A stretch of DNA of 64,000 bases from Oscillospiraceae bacterium (GCA_015064625.1 SVRW01000008.1:87-64086), one strand, 5' to 3'. Numbered from the stretch's first letter, positions 2,935-51,792 are shown. Program-made: numbers and translations. The notes: a model not told the origin generated them from the sequence alone.

Positions 2935-5454
2935 TTAAGATACAACAACTTCAACAATACCATTTTCATTGATTCTTATGGGATACATATATGTATGTCT
3001 ATTGTCCCAACCTGTGGTTCCTCCCGTGGGTTTTGCATGGAATACCACCCATATAACACCGTTTTCATCAGTAATAAAACAGTTGTGTCCGGGGCCGTAG
3101 AAACCGTTCATGGAGCTAAGAATAGGATATTCTATTTTTTGCCACCTATTGGGATTCAATATATCGCCTCCTAAGAAAAGCAACTGGCCAAGGCAATAAT
3201 TATCACACCAACTTCCGCTCGCGGAATAAACTATCGTTAAATAATCCCCCTGTGTTATCGCAACTGGACCTTCGTTTACATAGGGATTTTCTGGCATTTC
3301 ACCTTTTTGTCTTTCCCAATCATACGAAGGTACAGAAATGCAAACTCTTTCAGAGGAAAGCGTCATGGGATCAGACATTCTTGCAATATAAATGTTCTGT
3401 TGAACGTTTACGTCGCCTTCCCAACCTGACCATGTGAAATATAATTCACCCTCATATTCAAACACAGAGCCGTCTATCGCCCATTTATCGTTTCTCCAGT
3501 CATAAATTTTCTGCGGAGCCTCAAATCCACCTGAAAGGTCATTTTTATTTTTGCTCTTCGCAACGTACATTCTACGAGCAGATACATCAGCACCTGGTGC
3601 TAAATACGCAAAATATATGTACCAATACTCGCCTATAAAATGTAATTCAGGTGCCCATACATCCCCTGATGTATCCAAACCCTCCACAGAAAGTCCAACA
3701 AATTTCACTTTTTCATATGTGAATATATTTTTAGTACTATCATTTAACTCAGCCAAATGTTCAGGATTAAAAACATCAAGCTCAATGGCAAAGAATCCAC
3801 CTATACCGCTCCAATAACCAATCCAATAATATTTACCATCATGATACGCTATTTGCGGGTCGGGAGAGCCTTGACGAGCAGGATTACCTATTGGTGTATA
3901 TCCTGTTACGTTCGGATCTACAAACCCTGCGTTTTGAACGACATCTTGAATACTTGGGAATTTTACATCCGAATTTATAACCTCAATAATACCGTTTTCG
4001 TTGATTCTTATGGGTTCAAGGAACGTATCTCTACCTTCCCAACCTTTTCCTGAGTATTTGTTGGCATGAAACATCATCCACCAAACACCGTTTTCACTTG
4101 GAACAACACAGCTATGTCCAGGAGCATAGAAACGATCTGGAATTGTTTTAAGTATTGGTTCTGTATGTTTATGCCAGCTAGATGGATCCAAAACGTCGCC
4201 ACCTAAATAAAGCAACTGACCAAGACAATAATCGTCACACCAGCTTCCGCTTGCTGAATAAACTATGGTTAAGTAATCGCCTTGTGAAAATGCGTAAGGA
4301 GCTTCGTTAACCGTAGGATTTTCTGTTAACGTACCTTTTTTCTTTTCCCAATCATAATAAGGAACAGCAATTTCAACTCTTTCAGAAGAAATTGTTGTAG
4401 GAGAAGACATTTTTGCGATATAGATATTCTGTTGACCATCCACATCGCCTGCCCAGCCTGACCAGGTGAAATACATTCCGCCCTTATATTTAAACACAGA
4501 GCCGTCTATTGCCCATTTATTTGAAGAATCAGTAATTACACCCACGTATTCGAAAGCTTCTTCCATGGTACCATCCGCTTTAAGATAATCTTCTCTTAAA
4601 AGGGAACTCTTTTTGCTCTTCAACACGTGCATTCTGTGATTTGCACCTACACCCACCGCATAATATACGTACCAGTATCCGTCTATAAAATGAAGTTCAG
4701 GTGCCCATAATTCCGAATCAGCATTATGATAAATGGGGTAATTAACGGGAACTGCGTTATCCGTTGTTATTTCATCAAGACTATCAAAGGAAGAAATAAA
4801 ATGTCCAAATGGCGAAGTGAAATACCAATAATATTTTCCTTCGTGGTATGCGATAGTAGGGTCTGACATACCTTCACCAATGGGATTCAATGCTTTATTA
4901 TATCCAACCTCAAGAGGATCGACAAATCCGGCATCTTCAACAACCGCAGGCAATCCCTCAATGTGGAATCTCTCGGGTGCTTTCAAATAAGAACCTTCAT
5001 AAAGGTTAAACATTTCAAGAAAATGCCCTTTTATTCGAAGATAGTCCGTAGCATCTACGGGACGATCGCCATCAACGTCTGCCGCTTCCAAAAAAGCTCC
5101 GTTAAGTTCTACATCGCCAAGACAATATTTCTTAACGTTAAGATAGTCCGTAGTATCTACAACGCCGTTTCCGTCCACGTCGCCTAAAACAACTGCTTTA
5201 TAGCTTTTATCCGCTATTTTAACAGAACTCCCTGTTCCAATATGTTCCTGTGTCGTGGAAACCTCTGTTTTTTCTTTCATGGACCACTCAAATTTTTGTG
5301 GTTCTACACGTTCGGGTATACCCATGATATATCCACCGTTATAGGAGATGTTATAATCCCAAGAAATATCGATCGCACCTGCAAAAGATGGAGCAAACAC
5401 CGTTGTACACATCAAAACAACCAATGCAAATGCAATAATTTTGTTTTTTCTCAT
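2935..5454 (-). CDS. secreted protein: N-terminal dockerin + two tandem GH43-type beta-propeller modules
   Basis: Signal peptide MRKNKIIAFALVVLMCTTVFAPSFAGA. GGAGG RBS.
Duplicated Ca-loop dockerin: GDVDGNGVVDTTDYL...AADVDGDRPVDATDYLRIK.
Two copies of the GH43 motif set: DPxIAYHxGKYY, WAPELHFIxxYWY, HRMxV, WAIDGSVF, QNIYIAxMS, VNE[AG]P, YSASGSWCDxYCLGQL, PGHxC. Confidence 0.8.
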   Translation of the reverse strand: MRKNKIIAFALVVLMCTTVFAPSFAGAIDISWDYNISYNGGYIMGIPERVEPQKFEWSMKEKTEVSTTQEHIGTGSSVKIADKSYKAVVLGDVDGNGVVDTTDYLNVKKYCLGDVELNGAFLEAADVDGDRPVDATDYLRIKGHFLEMFNLYEGSYLKAPERFHIEGLPAVVEDAGFVDPLEVGYNKALNPIGEGMSDPTIAYHEGKYYWYFTSPFGHFISSFDSLDEITTDNAVPVNYPIYHNADSELWAPELHFIDGYWYVYYAVGVGANHRMHVLKSKKSSLLREDYLKADGTMEEAFEYVGVITDSSNKWAIDGSVFKYKGGMYFTWSGWAGDVDGQQNIYIAKMSSPTTISSERVEIAVPYYDWEKKKGTLTENPTVNEAPYAFSQGDYLTIVYSASGSWCDDYCLGQLLYLGGDVLDPSSWHKHTEPILKTIPDRFYAPGHSCVVPSENGVWWMMFHANKYSGKGWEGRDTFLEPIRINENGIIEVINSDVKFPSIQDVVQNAGFVDPNVTGYTPIGNPARQGSPDPQIAYHDGKYYWIGYWSGIGGFFAIELDVFNPEHLAELNDSTKNIFTYEKVKFVGLSVEGLDTSGDVWAPELHFIGEYWYIYFAYLAPGADVSARRMYVAKSKNKNDLSGGFEAPQKIYDWRNDKWAIDGSVFEYEGELYFTWSGWEGDVNVQQNIYIARMSDPMTLSSERVCISVPSYDWERQKGEMPENPYVNEGPVAITQGDYLTIVYSASGSWCDNYCLGQLLFLGGDILNPNRWQKIEYPILSSMNGFYGPGHNCFITDENGVIWVVFHAKPTGGTTGWDNRHTYMYPIRINENGIVEVVVS

Positions 5455-21318: not shown

Positions 21319-21561
21319 TTTCTCACTCTCTCCTTCGTTATTGTCACAAAGTTTTCGCAAAGCCTGTGGATCACAAGGATTTTTTATCCCTCTCACCACA
21401 TCGATCCATTTTTGAACGTCTTAACACTTTATTATCGCTTTACTAACAAAAAATACCATTTCATCCACGTTTGTTTCGTTGATGTTAAGCGAACATTTCT
21501 GTGTTTTTACCACAAAAACGGCATACTACGCCCATCCAAACCATGGTAGGCGCAGTATGCA

Positions 21562-21590
21562 ATATTATCACAAATATTTCCTTTTGTCAA
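21562..21590 (-). promoter_or_regulatory. sigma-A promoter for rpoB-rpoC
   Basis: Minus strand reads TTGACA (21590-21585), a 17-nt spacer, then TAATAT (21567-21562). This implies a ~240-nt leader before the rpoB ATG. Confidence 0.6.
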
Positions 21591-21624
21591 TAGCTTTTTT
21601 GAAAAAAGTTAAAAAGATTTTTTG

Positions 21625-21852
21625 GGCAGGAGGCTGACGCCAAGGCAAGAGGCAAGAGGCAGGAGGCAAGAGGCGATAGTAATTCGGAATTCGGAGTTCG
21701 GAATGCGGAATGATTAAAAAGCATGGTTTCGAGGATTCTCAAGCCCGTTCTTTATCTATTTTCATTTTGAATAATATAATAAAATATTTTTCGACCATCG
21801 GGAGAAAAATTTCAATAATTTTCAATTTTCAACTGTCAATTTTCAATTCAAT
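21625..21852. repeat. interspersed repeat family, copy A (three heptamer arrays + half hairpin core)
   Basis: Starts ggcaggaggctgacgccaag.
Array 1, 21644-21674: GGCAAGA units.
Array 2, 21681-21712: AATTCGG units.
Core arm, ~21779-21813: aatatttttcgaccatcgggagaaaaatttc.
Array 3, 21817-21849: AATTTTC units.
Shares strings with the copies at 32993, 40505 and 43764. Confidence 0.75.
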
Positions 21853-21875
21853 GTGTTTTTCTGCATTCCTTGTAT

Positions 21876-25289: not shown

Positions 25290-26177
25290 ATGTTCGGAAA
25301 ACGCAAATCAAGTAACGAAAGAAAAATATACACATCGGGATATCATCCTGAAAGCGAAAAAGATAAGCTTCTTTCCTTTTCCGTTAAAGAAGCGTATAAG
25401 GCTATAAGAACAAACATAGTTTTGTCTCTTATAAAAGACGGATGCAAGGTAATAACCTTTACAAGTCCGGTCCCTTCAGAAGGGAAATCCACAACTATTT
25501 CAAACGTTGCGGTGTCACTTTCAAAAGCATATTACAGAGTTCTCCTCATAGATTGCGATCTACTCAAGCCACGTTTGCACAAAACCTTCAAAATAAAGAA
25601 CACGTCAGGATTGACAAACGTATTGAGCAAGCTTTCAAGCTTTGAAAGCAGTGTTCAGGTTCTTGATGATTACAGCGGGATCCACGTGCTTACGGCTGGT
25701 ATTTCAGCACCAAACCCTTCGGAAATGCTTGGCAGTGACAGAATGAAAGAGCTTCTTGCTTCACTTACTGAAAAGTATGATTACATTCTTATTGATACTC
25801 CACCTATAAACATCCTTTCTGATGGTCTAAGCCTTGCCCGCATATCCGACGGGGTTGTACTGGTTGTAAGACAGGATCATTCGACACACGACGAGCTTAA
25901 GCAAGCAATAAATTCCATTGAATTTATTTCCGCAAAAATCATCGGTATCGTTTATAACGGTATGAGCGGAGAAAAGACGGTCGGAGGAGGATACGGAAAA
26001 TCCTCAAAATACGGCAAATACGGTAAATACGGTAAATACGGTAAATACGGTCGTTATGGTTCGTATAATTCGTACAGCTATGCAGCAACGTACGGAGATA
26101 AGGAACGCAAGGGCGATCAAACGAAAGAAAAAGGATTTATCGAAGTTGAAGAAAAATCCGAAGGTAGCGAAGGTTAA
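25290..26177 (+). CDS. CpsD/CapB-family bacterial tyrosine kinase
   Basis: AAGGAGG RBS. Walker A: TSPVPSEGKSTT. Walker A'/B: VLLIDCDLLKP and YILIDTPP. C-terminal Tyr cluster: YGKSSKYGKYGKYGKYGKYGRYGSYNSYSYAATYG. Confidence 0.85.
   Translation: MFGKRKSSNERKIYTSGYHPESEKDKLLSFSVKEAYKAIRTNIVLSLIKDGCKVITFTSPVPSEGKSTTISNVAVSLSKAYYRVLLIDCDLLKPRLHKTFKIKNTSGLTNVLSKLSSFESSVQVLDDYSGIHVLTAGISAPNPSEMLGSDRMKELLASLTEKYDYILIDTPPINILSDGLSLARISDGVVLVVRQDHSTHDELKQAINSIEFISAKIIGIVYNGMSGEKTVGGGYGKSSKYGKYGKYGKYGKYGRYGSYNSYSYAATYGDKERKGDQTKEKGFIEVEEKSEGSEG
26007..26051 (+). repeat. 5 x 9-bp in-frame tandem repeat (AAATACGGY = Lys-Tyr-Gly) in the BY-kinase tail
   Basis: aaatacggc is followed by four perfect aaatacggt units at 26007-26051, then degenerate units (cgttatggt...). 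Confidence 0.9.
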
Positions 26178-32835: not shown

Positions 32836-32874
32836 AGCAAACGCTGTGCGTTTGCAATGAGTGTGCCGTGGGCA

Positions 32875-32984
32875 GTGAAGCAGGAGCAAGGCTCCTGTGA
32901 AGCATTGACTATGGCAACGTGAAGTAGAATCAAAGCTCCTGTGAAGCATTACCTTCGCCTTCGTGAAATTTTTGGCTTCGCCAA
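32875..32984. repeat. five phased 22-nt units each starting GTGAAG/GTGAAA (2.5 copies of a 44-nt repeat)
   Basis: GTGAAR occurs at 32875, 32897, 32919, 32941 and 32963, exactly 22 nt apart. A 16-nt exact repeat, gctcctgtgaagcatt, occurs at 32891-32906 and 32935-32950. Confidence 0.85.
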
Positions 32985-32992
32985 AAGTTAAC

Positions 32993-33099
32993 ACGGTGCT
33001 CGAAAAGCAATTATATAAAATATTTTTCGAAACGCAGTGAGAAAAATTTCCTTCACTCCTGCCTCTTGCCTCTTGCCTCTATGCCTTAGCGTCAGCCTG
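32993..33099. repeat. interspersed repeat family, copy B (hairpin core + inverted heptamer arm)
   Basis: cggtgctcgaaaagcaattatataaaatatttttcgaaacgcagtgagaaaaatttccttcactcctgcctcttgcctcttgcctctatgccttagcgtcagcctg. The right end is the reverse complement of the left end of copy A. Confidence 0.75.
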
Positions 33100-36104: not shown

Positions 36105-36366
36105 TTTCAGAGTCTCCTTTTGTTTTTTTTGTTTTTTGTTTTTATTTCAAATCAAGCAAAAGAACTTTATAATTGAAGTACTAATGCATATTATATTTTA
36201 TACCATAAAATATAATAAAAGTCAACTCTTTTGCAAAGCTTTTTTATAAATTCCTGAAAGGAAATTTTATCAAGTATTCCTATCCTTTCTTGATTCTTGT
36301 TATTTGGACAATTTATTGTATTTTTTCTCAGATAAAGCTAAAAATTTCCTTGGTTTTGTACCACCA

Positions 36367-38042: not shown

Positions 38043-38051
38043 GCCAAAGTG

Positions 38052-38084
38052 AAAGCCCAAGCGATTTAGTTGCTTGGGCTTTTA
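38052..38084. terminator. terminator shared by sigF (+) and the convergent surface-protein gene (-)
   Basis: aaagcccaagc (38052-38062) pairs with gcttgggcttt (38072-38082), followed by a T-run. Confidence 0.7.
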
Positions 38085-38093
38085 CCTTGTTTC

Positions 38094-40504: not shown

Positions 40505-40608
40505 ACAGGCAATAAGGAAACAACTAAATTCGAATTATCTCTTGCCTTTTGCCTACTGCCTCTTGCCTTATGTCTTTGGGGATGTTACACGAATTGTGCA
40601 ACATCCCC
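40505..40608. repeat. interspersed repeat family, copy D (heptamer arm + GC hairpin)
   Basis: acaggcaataagg...aaattcgaattat, then ctcttgc cttttgc ctactgc ctcttgc ctta (40538-40570), then the hairpin ggggatgttacac-gaatt-gtgcaacatcccc (40578-40608). Lies 24 nt 3' of the GHL10 gene stop. Confidence 0.6.
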
Positions 40609-40631: not shown

Positions 40632-42152
40632 TCAATATTTAATAACTTTACCTTTGATTTTAGTGGTTAAATAAGGTTTAGCGTTATTAACCTCTTCTGC
40701 GGTCAATGGGTTTGGAGTACCCTTGAGGGGATCAAACATATACTGATAGCAGAAAATCGCATATCCGCTGAAGTCAGGCTGTTTTACAGCAAATTCGAAG
40801 CACTTTTTGATAACGTCCTTGTTATGAATCCATTCTTCCTTACCTGCACCTGCGTATGCATCAGCTTCACCTCTTGAACCTGCCTGTGCCTTACCAAGAG
40901 TCATACCTGCATAAAGCTTGATCTTGGGATTTGTAATTGCGTCTGACCAACGCTGATACGTTGAGGAGAAGCTCCACGAGGAATGCTCCATACCAAAATA
41001 AATCTGAGGCATGATATAGTCAACATAACCGTCCTGTGAAAGCCACGTTTTAATATCGGCATAATAAGTTGTAGGCATTTTGTCAATGTTACCCGCAGGG
41101 GAAATACCGAACATAACGTTTTTATTTTCTTCTTTAATTGCGGAATAGATACCTGAAACCAAAGCGTTAAGATTGTTATATCTGAACTGCTGGAGAGTAA
41201 GGGTAGGTTTCTGTTTACGAGCCTTTTCGTATGCCTTTTTGTCGAATTCGGGCTCTTCGCCCCAGTAGAAATAGTCGTCCATATGAACGCCGTCAACATC
41301 GTAGTTACGAACGATTTCAGCAGCACCGTTTATAATAAGCTCACGAACTTCTTCGTAAGAAATATTCAAATAAAGAAGACCATCATCACCGCGGCCGTAA
41401 AGGTAATCGTTTTTGGATGCTTTTCCCGCCCAACTTGCCATGGGATAGAAAGTTTTTATTTTCCCAAGATTATCAGAGGACATACCTCTCATGGGGTTGA
41501 TCCATGCATGGAAGCTGAGACCCTTTTCATGAGCAAGTTCAACCATTATCTGAAGTGCATCATATTTTGCATATTTGCCGTAAGAGCCAAGAATATAATG
41601 AGAAGCGGGATAATATGCAGAAGGATAAAAGCTGTCTGCGTTAGGACGAACCTGAACGATAACCGTGTTGAATCCAAGATCTACCAAATTATCAAACGCT
41701 TTGGAAACAACCTTTTTGAAGTTGGATTCAGAACGCTGTGTTGTTCCGTTGTCTCCGTTTTTGTAAACGCTTGTGAAGTCAAACTGGGATATCCACATTG
41801 CCTTCATCTTGTCGTAGTTAAGGGGAACGTAGTCGCTGTTGGCACCTTTGTCCTTAAAACCTCTTTTTTTGAGAGTTTTATCTGTGTTTGAAACTCTGAG
41901 GAACTGTTTATATCCTTCTTTGTCAATGTATTCTCCTGAAGAAGCATCTTCGGAAGTATCCGTAGAAGCATCTGTGGAAACGTCAACAGAAGTATCTGTG
42001 GAAGCATCCGCGGAAGCGTCTGCGGAAGTATTGGTAGAAGTATCAGCAGAATTTTCTGATTTGCTTTCTTCTGAGCTTTCATTACCACCACATGCACACA
42101 ATGCGAAAAGCGTAGCTGCAGCAAGTAACAATGCCATAATTTTCTTTAACAT
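40632..42152 (-). CDS. lipoprotein, glycosyl-hydrolase-like family 10 (GHL10/DUF187, YngK-like)
   Basis: GGAGG RBS. Lipobox LFALCACGG. Thr/Asp/Ser/Ala-rich linker. TIM-barrel-like body with VIVQVRPNADSFYPS, FHAWINP and DGVHMDDYFYW motifs recalled from GHL10 proteins. Confidence 0.6.
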   Translation of the reverse strand: MLKKIMALLLAAATLFALCACGGNESSEESKSENSADTSTNTSADASADASTDTSVDVSTDASTDTSEDASSGEYIDKEGYKQFLRVSNTDKTLKKRGFKDKGANSDYVPLNYDKMKAMWISQFDFTSVYKNGDNGTTQRSESNFKKVVSKAFDNLVDLGFNTVIVQVRPNADSFYPSAYYPASHYILGSYGKYAKYDALQIMVELAHEKGLSFHAWINPMRGMSSDNLGKIKTFYPMASWAGKASKNDYLYGRGDDGLLYLNISYEEVRELIINGAAEIVRNYDVDGVHMDDYFYWGEEPEFDKKAYEKARKQKPTLTLQQFRYNNLNALVSGIYSAIKEENKNVMFGISPAGNIDKMPTTYYADIKTWLSQDGYVDYIMPQIYFGMEHSSWSFSSTYQRWSDAITNPKIKLYAGMTLGKAQAGSRGEADAYAGAGKEEWIHNKDVIKKCFEFAVKQPDFSGYAIFCYQYMFDPLKGTPNPLTAEEVNNAKPYLTTKIKGKVIKY

Positions 42153-42927: not shown

Positions 42928-43764
42928 ATGGGTGAAAAACAACCCCTCGGTGGATTCTGTTCAAGATCCAACGATCCACTTTGCTGTATAAGCGTTAATA
43001 AGGTTTTTGACTCTGCGAAAGACAAAGATTGCCTTGAAGACGTAAAAGTTTACGTACCCGATTGCTATCAGGAGCTTCTCGACAGAGCTACCGCCATAAG
43101 ATGCAAATCTGTAAAGGTTGCAGGAACAAACATAAGCGTTGAACCTGTTCCTTTCAACAAAGGATACTTTCAGGTTTGTATCAGATATTATTTCTGCATA
43201 ACCCTTGAAGTCTGCGTTTGCGGTGGGAAATCCGCAGAGCTTTGCGGGCTTGCCGTTTTCGATAAAAAAATCATTTTGTTCGGAAGTGAAAAGAACGTCA
43301 ACATTTTCAAATCCAATCCTGATTGCAACGATTTCTGTCCCGATGCCAGCGACGTAAAATGCGATCTTCAGCCCTCTCTCCCAACAGTTGTGCTTGAAGT
43401 TGCAGAACCTATTTGTCTGGACGCAAAAATAGTCGAAAAATGCAAAAGATTCGGAAATTGCCGTACCCACGTTGACACGATTCCGGACTGCATCCGCGGA
43501 TGCTTCGAAGGTAATCTGGTTGACGGCTACGGTGTAAACGAGCTTTTCGTTTCTATCGGTGTGTTCTCAATTATAAGAATGGAACGCCCTGTACAAATAG
43601 TTATCCCAGCCTCAAGCTTCTGCATTCCCGAAAAGGACAGTACACCTTGCGATGCCGCATCAAACCCCTGTTCCGTATTCAGCAAAATGAACTTTCCCAT
43701 TCAGGAATTTTTCCCTCAATCTCCCGACGGATGCTTGAAAATGCCTGATAAGTGTTGTAAATAA
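42928..43764 (+). CDS. cysteine-rich hypothetical protein (25 Cys in 278 aa), no family recognised
   Basis: Strong RBS GGAGG 8 nt upstream. No signal peptide or TM segment. Cys patterns CC, CxC, two Cx3C, and a terminal KCCK. Confidence 0.6.
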   Translation: MGEKQPLGGFCSRSNDPLCCISVNKVFDSAKDKDCLEDVKVYVPDCYQELLDRATAIRCKSVKVAGTNISVEPVPFNKGYFQVCIRYYFCITLEVCVCGGKSAELCGLAVFDKKIILFGSEKNVNIFKSNPDCNDFCPDASDVKCDLQPSLPTVVLEVAEPICLDAKIVEKCKRFGNCRTHVDTIPDCIRGCFEGNLVDGYGVNELFVSIGVFSIIRMERPVQIVIPASSFCIPEKDSTPCDAASNPCSVFSKMNFPIQEFFPQSPDGCLKMPDKCCK

Positions 43765-43889
43765 GGCAATAGGCAGTAGGCAGTAGTGTCGGAAGCTTTT
43801 CTCACTGCGGTCGAAAAGCAATTTTATATAATATTTTTCGACCGGCGGGAGAAAAATTTCTTTCACTCTTGCCTCCTGACCCTTGCCCG
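43764..43889. repeat. interspersed repeat family, copy C (most complete: arm-hairpin-arm palindrome)
   Basis: aaggcaataggcagtaggcagtag...ttttctcactgcggtcgaaaa-gcaattttatataat-atttttcgaccggcgggagaaaa...ctcttgcctcctgacccttgccc. Starts on the stop codon of the Cys-rich gene. Confidence 0.8.
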
Positions 43890-43892
43890 AAT

Positions 43893-43929
43893 AAATCAAA
43901 AAGAGCTGCAAGACAGCTCTTTTTGATTT
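43893..43929. terminator. bidirectional terminator between convergent genes
   Basis: aaatcaaaaagagctg (43893-43908) pairs with cagctctttttgattt (43914-43929). The 16-bp stem has A/T-rich ends, giving U-runs in both directions. Confidence 0.7.
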
Positions 43930-44842
43930 ATTTCTTCATAAACTCTCTGATTTCTTTTTCGCTTGGCAAGGCTTCAAATCCACCTTCTTTACTTCCCGTG
44001 ATAGCAGCGGCAGCAGAAGCAAATTCCGCGGAATCCTTTATATTATCCGTTCTCAAATATGAAATGGTAAGAGCAGAAACGAAGGCTTCTCTGCAACCGT
44101 TTGAATCAACTACAGGAACGTCCCAAGGCATAATAAAATCACAATATTTTCCGTCGTATATGTAATATCCCTTTTCTTCCATATCAATTATGGTATATTT
44201 GATATTCGCTTTTGAATTAAGCTTTATACATCCATTCATACGGTCATCTATAGTTTTCACTGTCAATCCGGTAAGGACAGACAGATTTTCATCGCTAAGG
44301 ATAACAATATCCGCAGACTTGAAGGAAAGCACGTCTGTTTCACTCTTTGCACCCGTTGCATCGAGAATAAATTTTGTGTTCTGCATGGAAGCACAACGGC
44401 TTGCCGTACTTACAACCTCTAATGGAAGCTCCAACGTGGTTATTACCGCATCGGGCATAACGTTGAAAGAGGTTTCAACGTCTGTTGAATTTATAAAACG
44501 CGAAGAAGAAGGAATGTATATCTCACCGCTTTTGTTTTCAAAGGAAAAATTCATTGACGTCTGAGCGTTACGGCAAATTTTAATATATCTGTTTTCAACT
44601 CTTTCATCTGAAAGAATTCGTCTGAAAGTATTTCCGAACATATCATCGCCCAAAGCCGTACAGAACATTGAGCCCCATCCGAGACGGGAAATGGCTATTG
44701 CCGTATTTGCACCTCTGCCACCTGCGGAAAATCTGTATTTATCAGATTCAAGCTTTTTCTTTTCATCACTTACAGCATAAGGCGTTCCAATTTTCAGTTC
44801 TATTATAGAAAGCCCTATGGTTAAAATATTTCCCCTGATCAT
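43928..44842 (-). CDS. PfkB-family carbohydrate kinase (ribokinase-like)
   Basis: ORF track 43928..44869. The ATG at 44842 follows AAAGGAGA. GGRGANTAIAISRLG (GG switch region). The C-terminal nucleotide-binding region reads VVDSNGCREAF instead of the usual DTxGAGDxF. Confidence 0.75.
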   Translation of the reverse strand: MIRGNILTIGLSIIELKIGTPYAVSDEKKKLESDKYRFSAGGRGANTAIAISRLGWGSMFCTALGDDMFGNTFRRILSDERVENRYIKICRNAQTSMNFSFENKSGEIYIPSSSRFINSTDVETSFNVMPDAVITTLELPLEVVSTASRCASMQNTKFILDATGAKSETDVLSFKSADIVILSDENLSVLTGLTVKTIDDRMNGCIKLNSKANIKYTIIDMEEKGYYIYDGKYCDFIMPWDVPVVDSNGCREAFVSALTISYLRTDNIKDSAEFASAAAAITGSKEGGFEALPSEKEIREFMKK

Positions 44843-44877
44843 TCGGTTCTCCTTTCTGGAAATTTTCAAAAACTATC

Positions 44878-50313: not shown

Positions 50314-51792
50314 ATGAAAAAATCAAAAAACAAATTTGAGATAAAAAAGCTTTTCTCTACACCTAAAAGAGCAGTAATAACATTAAGTGTTTCAATTCTT
50401 GCTCTTGCAATTCTCGGAACAACTTCCGTTTTTTCTGCATACGCCATTGCTGAAAACGTAGCTATCGGAGAAGAAGCGGCAAAAAACAATGCATTTGAAG
50501 CGGCAGGTGTGGATTTTGAAAATGTTGATGCGGTTAAAACTAAATTCAAATTTCACCGTGGAAAGTTCGTATATGATGTTAAATTCTATTCCGAAGGAAA
50601 AGAATTCGAATATAAAATTCATTCCAAGGACGGTGTAGTAGTTGGATTTGAAAAGCCCGAAAAAGTTTCTCTTCCCCAAAATGCAATAACCGCTGATGAA
50701 GCAAAAGAAATCGCCCTTACTCACGCAGGTTTGGTTGAAGAAGACGTAACTTTTACAAAAGTAAAAATTGATAAAGACGACGGAATTTATGAATACGAAA
50801 TCGAATTCAAAACAGATAGCAAAAAATACGAATACGAAATAAACGCAGAAGACGGACAAATTATAGAGTCCAAATCAAAAAATCTCTCCATTTTCAGTTC
50901 CGAAGAAGCGGAAAAAGTAATTTCCGTTGAAGATGCTAAAAAAGCTGCTCTTGAACATGCTGGAATTACGGATGCGTTTTTTACAAAAGCAAAGCTTGAC
51001 AAAGAAGATGGCATTTATATATACGAAATAAAATTTATATATGAAAATGCTGAATACAAATACAAAATCGACGCCTTAACAAAAGAAGTTATTAAATCAT
51101 CTAACAAAAATGAAGAAGCTATTCCCGAAAACATTATATCTGAGGATGAAGCTAAAAACATAGCTCTCACTCATGCAGGTCTTACTGCAGAAAACGTTAG
51201 CTTCAAAAAATCAAAGCTGGACAAGGAAGAGGGAAAACTTGTTTATGATATTGAATTCTTAACAGCTGATAAAGAGTATGAATACGAAATACATGCGGAA
51301 AGCGGTGAAATTATCGAGTTTTCTTCTGATGATATAGATAATAAAGAATCAGCAGATGAAGAAAAACCTGCCAAACCTAACGAAAACCACAACGGTAATA
51401 CAAACGATAACAAACCTCAAAATCCTGATTTCAAACCTGAAGATAGCGAGAATGATGGCGATAAGAATGACAGATACGAGGGAAAAAATGAATATCCCAT
51501 GAATCCCGAACGCCCCAATAATCCTGAATATCCTATGAATCCCGAATATCCTAATAACTCTGAACAGAAACCAAACCCTCGCCCTGATTCTTTCATAGGT
51601 CTGGAAAAAGCAAAAAAAGCTGTTCTTGAAAAAGCAGGACTTTCCACAGAAAACGTAACCTTTACAAAAGCAAAGCTTGAGAAGGAAAAAGGTAGAGCTG
51701 AATACGAAATCGAATTTACCTGTGACGGAAAAAAATACGAATTTTCCGTAAATGCCTTAACGGGCGAAATTATTGAATTTGAAGTTGAATAA
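50314..51792 (+). CDS. membrane-anchored protein with ~6 PepSY domains
   Basis: ORF track 50236..51792. The ATG at 50314 follows AGGAG. N-terminal TM segment. Repeated I[ST]xDEAKxIALxHAGLxxxxVxFxKxKLDKxxGxxxYEIEFxxxxxEYEYEI units. Pro/Asn-rich spacer. Confidence 0.75.
   Translation: MKKSKNKFEIKKLFSTPKRAVITLSVSILALAILGTTSVFSAYAIAENVAIGEEAAKNNAFEAAGVDFENVDAVKTKFKFHRGKFVYDVKFYSEGKEFEYKIHSKDGVVVGFEKPEKVSLPQNAITADEAKEIALTHAGLVEEDVTFTKVKIDKDDGIYEYEIEFKTDSKKYEYEINAEDGQIIESKSKNLSIFSSEEAEKVISVEDAKKAALEHAGITDAFFTKAKLDKEDGIYIYEIKFIYENAEYKYKIDALTKEVIKSSNKNEEAIPENIISEDEAKNIALTHAGLTAENVSFKKSKLDKEEGKLVYDIEFLTADKEYEYEIHAESGEIIEFSSDDIDNKESADEEKPAKPNENHNGNTNDNKPQNPDFKPEDSENDGDKNDRYEGKNEYPMNPERPNNPEYPMNPEYPNNSEQKPNPRPDSFIGLEKAKKAVLEKAGLSTENVTFTKAKLEKEKGRAEYEIEFTCDGKKYEFSVNALTGEIIEFEVE

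Follow-up and report, generated by a model that had tools for sequence, protein, structure and literature searches.

An apparently unreported family of dispersed palindromic intergenic repeats with a tandem-GA hairpin core and heptamer arms in uncultured gut Eubacteriales

Among the dispersed intergenic repeats of bacteria, BOX elements have the structure A-Bn-C, in which the number of internal units is variable. Repetitive extragenic palindromic (REP) sequences are defined by a tetranucleotide, GTAG or CGTC, that is conserved at the hairpin foot (PMC3733652), and heptameric intergenic tandem repeats have been described as the cyanobacterial STRR, the Xanthomonas GGGAATC and the Geobacter heptanucleotide families (PMC4692102, PMC2700814). 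Gut-1 (Rfam RF01706), known from human-gut sequences, was rated a likely non-coding RNA (Weinberg et al. 2010, PMC2864571). In Proteobacteria, REP-like repeats have been studied well; in gut Clostridia, whose genomes are mostly available as fragmented metagenome-assembled genomes (MAGs), they are poorly catalogued. The element described here, designated copy A, occupies positions 43764-43889 of a 64,000-nt stretch of chromosomal DNA from an Oscillospiraceae bacterium (GCA_015064625.1 SVRW01000008.1:87-64086), the whole of which is referred to as the window. It is considered, with somewhat more confidence than doubt, to belong, as one copy, to a palindromic repeat family that is mosaic, non-coding, dispersed and of the REP/BIME/REPIN kind. 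Literature searches found no relevant paper on the family, which is genuine, apparently unreported and belongs to the dispersed palindromic intergenic repeats, among which the signature of its core is unusual.

Copy A is a 126-nt imperfect palindrome in which two inverted 25-nt hairpin cores, of the classes Y and X defined below, surround an AT-rich centre, with heptamer arrays on the outside. Its parts, and the hairpin adjoining it, are given here with the support from a covariance model (CM), Tandem Repeats Finder (TRF) or direct inspection of the sequence:

43764-43786, plus strand: left arm, heptamer array AGGCAAT/AGGCAGT, 3.3 units (reported by TRF as AGGCAGT x3.3)
43789-43825, minus strand: class-Y core, GCTTTTC-GA-CC-GCA-GT-GA-GAAAAGC (CM R1, 45.7 bits, E 2e-8)
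43818-43834, strand not assigned: AT-rich centre GCAATTTTATATAATAT between the inverted cores
43827-43863, plus strand: class-X core, ATTTTTC-GA-CC-GGC-GG-GA-GAAAAAT, with a TTTC linker (CM R1, 49.4 bits, E 2e-9)
43864-43889, plus strand: right arm, C-rich heptamers CTCTTGC/CTCCTGA/CCCTTGC (sequence, inverted-repeat search)
43890-43932, strand not assigned: likely terminator hairpin outside the repeat, a perfect 19-bp stem (100% complementary) flanked by A and T runs

The inverted repeat has 53-nt arms (43765-43817 and 43835-43887) that are 74% complementary and lie 17 nt apart, the right heptamer array being an imperfect complement of the left. As single-stranded DNA, copy A was predicted to form a single long hairpin (-28 kcal/mol, z = -5.4) that none of 200 shuffled sequences equalled in stability, and the RNA fold of copy A together with the adjacent terminator gave z = -11.2. 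In copy A, two half-elements with cores of classes Y and X are joined head to head as a dimer, and it is because of this arrangement that the whole of its 126 nt folds back. An initial annotation, made from the sequence alone, had described an element of about 125 nt forming one large palindrome and starting on a stop codon, and both statements were confirmed, the first base of copy A being the last base of the TAA (43762-43764) of the open reading frame (ORF) 42928-43764. The T-run of an intrinsic terminator was not found directly after copy A; that role is played by the separate hairpin at 43890-43932, likely the bidirectional terminator of the convergent ORF 42928-43764 (plus strand) and pfkB 43928-44869 (minus strand). 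The stem of this hairpin is kept and its loop is replaced in the sister species introduced below. Its position, after a stop codon and ahead of a terminator, makes it almost certain that copy A is transcribed.

The core is a 25-nt hairpin with an outer stem of ATTTTTC/GAAAAAT, a symmetric 2x2 5'-GA/GA-3' internal loop, a 2-bp inner stem and a triloop, as given by the minimum-free-energy fold. Three core classes coexist, namely X (AUUUUUC...GAAAAAU), Y (GCUUUUC...GAAAAGC) and Z (AUUUCC...GGAAAU), and they differ from one another by compensatory changes. In an alignment of 32 distinct cores, 94% of the stem cells were paired, and changes on both sides were present in five of the nine stem pairs (41 cells), values that were not reached in any of 500 shuffles; controls in which the register was slid gave only 30-63% pairing. 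The core is thus constrained to fold as a hairpin in the single strand. The GA/GA loop was present in 31 of the 32 cores, while the triloop took 15 different forms, and with the fold constrained, the triloop free and the GA loop kept, the mismatched purines therefore constitute a conserved 'face'. Kink-turns carry tandem G.A pairs beside a 3-nt bulge on one strand, and this identity was rejected, as the 2x2 GA/GA loop is symmetric and none of the 32 cores has a bulge there. The foot of the core reads (A/T)ATATTTTTCGA or TGCTTTTCGA. Cores also have a fixed polarity: on the strand that carries GA, C exceeded G in the 50 nt downstream of all 42 distinct cores compared (641 C versus 239 G).

Within the window, the motif TTTTCGA-N6-9-GAGAAAA has four matches against 0.02 expected, including one in the Y core of copy A (43797-43817), whose GA strand is the minus strand. 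A CM built from the 32 cores found exactly these four (45-52 bits, E 2.8e-8 to 6.6e-10) plus one probable relic. Matches were obtained by blastn at 33000-33065 (86% over 66 nt, E 1.6e-9) and, in copy C, at 21783-21813 (94% over 31 nt, E 1e-7), and nhmmer likewise recovered copies B and C. TRF reported six period-7 arrays of at least three units in the window, and all six fall within the four loci that had been reported. The members outside copy A are:

21623-21860, plus strand: copy C, a solo half-element with nested arms (CM 51.6 bits, E 7e-10)
32873-33099, plus strand: copy B (sequence, blastn, TRF and CM)
36314-36351, plus strand: possible decayed X core TATTTTTTCTCAGATAAAGCTAAAAATTTCCTT, upstream of a spoIIAA-like gene (CM R1, 20.4 bits, E 0.05)
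40505-40608, plus strand: copy D, arms only (blastn E 0.006, TRF)

The left part of copy C consists of the cap AGGCTGACGCC, (AGGCAAG)x4.6 at 21643-21674 and (AATTCGG)x4.4 at 21681-21711 (TRF), and its right part of a 68-nt spacer, an X core at 21780-21816 and (AATTTTC)x4.6 at 21817-21848. Its location, between a serA-like terminator and the promoter of rpoB, places it outside the transcription units on either side. In copy B, a left arm at 32873-32974 made of five repeats of GTGAAG plus a hairpin, resembling a Gut-1 mini-hairpin array, is followed by a degenerate inverted core (about 32985-33007), an AT-rich centre and an X core with an 8-nt inner segment (33016-33053); on the right, (CTCTTGC)x4.3 at 33056-33086 leads to a cap, namely AGGCTGACGCT in reverse complement. 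Copy D contains AGGCAATAAGG and then five CTCTTGC-like units (40542-40577), followed by its own terminator hairpin; no core hairpin was found in it, and the sister species lacks this copy in its orthologous spacer (L012). The sequence at 36314-36351 is probably a decayed fifth core. The three further loci had initially been listed as partial copies, all in the 3' flanks of genes. For B and C this holds by blastn, motif and CM, while D proved to be a heptamer arm with a weak match (E 0.006); copy B, which had been delimited as 32993-33099, reaches leftwards to about 32873 as the mini-hairpin array; and the location in 3' flanks is true without being specific, since each of B, C and D is at the same time upstream of a following gene. 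Next to copy C, in the minus-strand sense upstream of rpoB (21519-21600), loci L025, L143 and L144 share with the window a sigma-70-type promoter (TTGACA-17-TAATAT) and, after it, a leader hairpin, GCATACTGCGCC...GGCGTAGTATGC, both of them conserved. This hairpin, which has no match in Rfam, may be an rpoB leader or attenuator structure.

A pattern search of one genome per GTDB species returned 40 loci, of which 27 were true and the rest chance matches inside genes. All 27 belong to five Eubacteriales/Clostridia MAGs (JAZOCZ, JAZQXP, JAZSEA, JAZSMP and JAGBYM), the fragmentary JAZOCZ contributing 15 loci with at least 22 cores, compared with four cores in the 64 kb of the window. The carriers of the family are a clade of uncultured gut Eubacteriales that is Ruminococcaceae-like. 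Every true copy is intergenic; the spacers are convergent, co-directional or apparently divergent, and the copies stand in either orientation relative to the neighbouring genes, which include rpsB, alaS, polA, parC/gyrA, aspartokinase and other housekeeping genes; several copies begin 0-5 nt after a stop codon. Inverted dimers in which the reverse complement of X, a centre and Y follow one another occur at 10 loci, and solo cores are common in either orientation. One central dimer of about 95 nt bears different arms, namely (AATTCGG)n, (GGCAAGA)n, (ATTCCGC)n, which can exceed 14 units, or arrays of mini-hairpins, and a subfamily 2 has a centre of about 200 nt with (CTCTGCA)n arms, the heptamers being followed at some loci by terminator-like hairpins. 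Arrays in the arms are imperfectly complementary and of variable length. Built in modules, the arms gain and lose length in whole units, and the recurrence of the distal caps AGGCTGACGCC and CACGGCACAGGGGACGGTTCATTT suggests that the element has defined ends. In a pattern scan of metagenomes, true matches were confined to L082, L091 and L101; the others, comprising a coding match in Eubacterium/Ruminococcus intestinalis, a Pelagibacter secY-like sequence and termite repeats, were rejected. No family copies were found in viral, plasmid and phage collections. The proposal of a non-autonomous repeat of REP or MITE (miniature inverted-repeat transposable element) type, with copies in both orientations, is accordingly supported by the multiple copies, their strictly intergenic location, the use of both orientations across genomes, presence and absence at orthologous sites, and assembly breaks.

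In these breaks, contigs of the same species from metagenomes end, or switch to the arm of another copy, directly after the core. At L131 (3937-3954) and L133 (2614-2623), the X core of copy A runs into CCTCAATTCCGAATTACGAATT, which is another copy's arm, after which the contig ends; the switch reflects either a chimeric assembly at the repeat or a real exchange of arms by recombination. At four JAZOCZ loci (L001, L026, L035 and L004), paralogous large proteins without a Pfam match, one of them with a dockerin, end 3 nt before an (AATGCGG)n arm, and the 3' ends of these genes and the elements appear to have been duplicated together. Truncated subfamily-2 elements at L016 (60-95) and L027 (110-145) are joined to a conserved GGTTCGACTCCCGTACGGCT that resembles a tRNA T-arm and 3' end. 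A tRNA-linked insertion was considered for these two loci and rejected, as neither ARAGORN nor Rfam calls a tRNA there.

Against Rfam, the window gave no match at gathering thresholds, and the element, at E<=1, only matches far below threshold to microRNA precursors, of the kind returned by generic long hairpins; nor did copy A match the Gut-1 model RF01706, and it contains no Gut-1 module. The mini-hairpin arms of other copies, by comparison, match Gut-1, which has three hairpins with GUGAAAU between them, the spacers here being GUGAAAU or GTGAAG. Set against the Rfam gathering score of 50 bits, the matches were:

L012, 6176-6249: 76.3 bits, within a mosaic of heptamers and a degenerate core
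L033, 441-514: 50.4 bits
L006, 4267-4346: 46.8 bits, an arm abutting an X core directly
Window, 32873-32974: left arm of copy B, 19.2 bits, E 0.24, the sole Rfam match in a 351-nt stretch

The flanks of the published Gut-1 seed sequences contain an AAUUUUC heptamer array like that of copy C, as well as inverted Gut-1 pairs. The GA core is nearly absent from these flanks, where a single UUUUCGA string was found, so that the arms have a wider distribution than the core. Judged from such sequence matches, Gut-1 is one interchangeable arm type of a palindromic mosaic repeat. The earlier remark that no named family could be recognised thus stands for the core and the element as a whole, which are negative in Rfam, and fails for one arm type, which is Gut-1. 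The spacer between sigF and the gene for a leucine-rich-repeat (LRR) dockerin protein also varies in length, measuring 357 nt in the sister MAG (L012 6140-6380, with the 76-bit Gut-1 match, heptamers and a degenerate core) and 51 nt in the window (38043-38093).

The sister species, MAG JAZOCZ, is syntenic with the window and 86-88% identical to it. Copy A is present at the same site, with five mismatches in 119 nt and an indel of one heptamer unit (7 nt) in the left arm, and copy C is kept at 95% identity (eight mismatches in 174 nt), with indels of whole modules relative to L025. Identity is thus about 96% for the two copies and about 87% for the flanks. As the flanks differ by 12-14%, A and C are significantly better conserved than their surroundings (P ~6e-4 and ~9e-4, respectively). 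The orthologous copies are closer to each other than to paralogues, and gene conversion is therefore not the cause. Occupancy differs in other congeners, those treated as core-negative being JAZNJM (GCA_045578045.1) and JAZRPU (GCA_045649365.1). Site A is empty in L135 and L136, where a 67-71-nt spacer with a terminator follows orthologues of ORF 42928-43764 that are 85-87% identical, and site C is empty in L143 and L144, which have nothing of the element between serA and the conserved rpoB promoter and encode SerA proteins of 92-95% identity. Copy D and a Gut-1 mosaic differ in presence between the window and JAZOCZ, and in a genome with only 60% SerA identity a family member starts at the serA stop codon. 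Copies have thus been gained and lost between congeners, and those retained are more conserved than their flanks. At L144 (MAG JAZRPU), a direct repeat, TTTGAAAGATTTTTCTT, at 3240-3262 and 4193-4215 flanks a 243-aa lipoprotein-like ORF inserted between serA and rpoB, and a core-like relic, TTTTTCTCAAAGTCGAAAAA, overlaps the tail of the serA terminator.

Under the reading of copy A as a REP-like repeat, the basic unit would be a polar half-element composed of an AT-rich stretch, the 25-nt core, a TTCC-type linker and a pyrimidine-rich arm, the latter being either a heptamer microsatellite or a Gut-1-type mini-hairpin array. A trans-acting protein whose gene lies elsewhere in the genome would recognise the GA-loop hairpin as its site and would copy or maintain the units as RAYT does for REPINs, and the heptamer arms would expand by replication slippage. 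Resident copies may be tolerated or retained because their stable foldback would act in a REP-like manner, either as a structural DNA site or, in transcripts such as the one from ORF 42928-43764, as a barrier at the 3' end. Several results weigh against this reading. The GTAG or CGTC tag that defines classical REPs was found in none of the 32 aligned cores. A tblastn search of 966 kb of fetched loci, which used an IS200 TnpA query and covers a small part of the host genomes, revealed no Y1/HUH transposase, and ORF clustering gave no recurrent neighbour gene except a dockerin-type paralogue family. Copy A has an AATAA at either side, but empty and filled spacers do not align downstream, and neither a target-site duplication nor a clean boundary of insertion was demonstrable. 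The wobble pairs in the stems (five G-U versus three A-C) are uninformative, and RNA and single-stranded DNA are therefore inseparable as the constrained form. Finally, the higher conservation of retained copies than of their flanks argues for a putative host-level function rather than pure selfishness. An autonomous insertion sequence (IS) with the same ends was likewise found neither in the window nor in the fetched loci, which cover the host genomes in part. The statement that the window contains no transposase or integrase was borne out by Pfam scans, in which none of its approximately 45 ORFs matched the corresponding families. A bolder form of the copying hypothesis, rather improbable in our estimation, is that the GA-loop hairpin and polar heptamer tail would be the working unit of an undescribed, non-RAYT, hairpin-directed copying system in Firmicutes, in which a protein would recognise the folded strand, the arms would be extended in a 7-nt register, and Gut-1 would be an arm product and not a small RNA.

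The elevated conservation of retained copies, the very stable foldback, the position of copy A between a stop codon and a canonical terminator, and the start of several copies 0-5 nt past a stop codon would suit a host module, namely a cis-acting RNA structure of the upstream gene that serves as 3'-UTR stabiliser, processing site, auxiliary terminator or bidirectional insulator. This explanation is unlikely without being negligible, as copy C is placed between the terminator of serA and the conserved promoter of rpoB, solo cores are found in either orientation upstream of rpsB, alaS, polA and parC/gyrA, the element is missing at the same genes in close congeners, and no U-tract follows it. The initial annotation had offered a modular 3'-UTR RNA as an alternative to the repeat, and as a general rule this was not upheld: only A lies between stop and terminator, C is outside transcription units, and the orientation is inconsistent. 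A decidedly unlikely possibility is that the copies are independent small-RNA genes, the class in which Gut-1 was first put; these would start at the AT-rich centre and carry a 5' GA hairpin and a pyrimidine-rich repeat tail. The strict polarity of the cores, the TATAAA/TATAAT-like box situated 2-10 nt upstream of most of them, the terminator-like hairpins after subfamily-2 heptamers at some loci and the published rating of Gut-1 as a likely non-coding RNA (PMC2864571) all point in that direction; however, the units have no fixed 3' end, their arms are highly variable in length and type, and palindromic dimers would yield mutually antisense transcripts. Moreover, no consistent -35/-10 pair was found upstream of 40 cores, most best scores being 7/12, and none in copies A and B. 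An internal sigma-70 promoter in the AT-rich centre was likewise not supported, with no such site detected in the centre of copy A and no consistent pair elsewhere.

Slightly less probable still are duplex DNA sites for a dimeric regulator or nucleoid-associated protein, with half-sites TTTTCGA and TCGAAAA/GAGAAAA and incidental heptamers. The copies are intergenic, the half-sites are inverted around AT-rich DNA and the retained copies are conserved, as such sites would be, but the two sides of the stem covary across X, Y and Z within one genome, which a single duplex-reading protein would not need; in addition, the invariant GA/GA is asymmetric and not palindromic in the duplex, solo cores are common, and the element is dispensable in congeners. 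Chance similarity of AT-rich, low-complexity intergenic DNA, with no family behind it, has a practically negligible probability. The sequences are indeed AT-rich with simple repeats, and copy D is weak when taken alone, but four motif matches were observed for 0.02 expected, CM E-values were ~1e-8 to 1e-10, and dozens of near-identical copies were found at unrelated loci of other genomes. Chance resemblance, which had been named at the outset as what would overturn the family, is excluded by the motif count, the covariation, the CM scores and the copies elsewhere. Some other candidates were also dropped: a CsrA sponge, as several heptamer types lack GGA; boxes for CodY or Spo0A, whose spacing is wrong; and a Rho rut site, with which the C-rich polarity agrees, although the arm is paired in dimers.

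The window derives from a sporulating, dockerin-encoding member of the Clostridia, in which Pfam scans identified rpsG-fusA-tuf, rpoB/rpoC, spoIIAA/AB-sigF, and GH43, GHL10 and BspA-LRR dockerin proteins. A SerA protein 100% identical to that of the window carries the NCBI label 'MAG: Ruminococcaceae bacterium'. A 9-nt tandem repeat (AAATACGGT x5) at 25991-26051, at the 3' end of an AAA_31/ParA-like ORF (25290-26177), would specify a tyrosine cluster of KYG type, as is typical of capsule BY-kinases, and a CpsB-like phosphatase gene adjoins it. In-frame tandem repeats of 12/24/36 nt at 41940-42051 (GHL10 gene) and of 18/36 nt at 51489-51564 (PepSY gene) are low-complexity coding linkers with no relation to the intergenic heptamers.

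The family explains contig breaks and chimeric joins and supplies a covariance model for masking and typing. The tandem-GA hairpin with its polar heptamer arms is a testable structural signature and a bait for a binding or mobilising protein, and placing Gut-1, an orphan Rfam motif since 2010, as a module of a palindromic DNA repeat changes how its covariation is read. With their turnover between congeners, the copies beside carbohydrate-active genes and beside rpoB, rpsB, alaS and polA amount to a natural experiment in which the effect on the expression of neighbouring genes can be studied.

Like the REP/BIME/REPIN sequences of Proteobacteria, the family consists of short, imperfect extragenic hairpins in multiple copies, with at least 22 cores in one fragmentary MAG, that show compensatory change, forms mosaics with other short motifs, and combines long persistence with vertical retention at some sites. 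As in BIMEs, singles occur alongside inverted doublets of two variants that give a long hairpin, X/Y here paralleling Y/Z of BIMEs, and, as with REPs, some copies lie between a stop codon and a terminator. The family differs from these sequences in its AU-rich core with an invariant tandem GA loop, as opposed to the GC-rich stem of REPs, in heptamer microsatellite arms with strict C-rich polarity, in its Firmicute host, and in that no RAYT was found in the fetched loci. With the STRR, Xanthomonas and Geobacter heptamers it shares intergenic period-7 arrays, with several unit sequences per genome, variable unit number and inverted arrangements, whereas its arrays are coupled to a hairpin core, have a fixed polarity and distal caps, are not G-quadruplex-forming and belong to a different phylum. 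It resembles BOX and RUP (pneumococcal), Correia and ERIC in being non-autonomous, intergenic, foldback-forming, modular and polymorphic for presence or absence; unlike them, it has no demonstrable terminal inverted repeat with target-site duplication and no partner IS, its unit is 7 nt as against ~45 nt, and it has no sequence similarity to any of them. Gut-1, lastly, was described as a free-standing small-RNA candidate of human-gut metagenomes, whereas here it takes the place of an interchangeable arm of a palindromic repeat.

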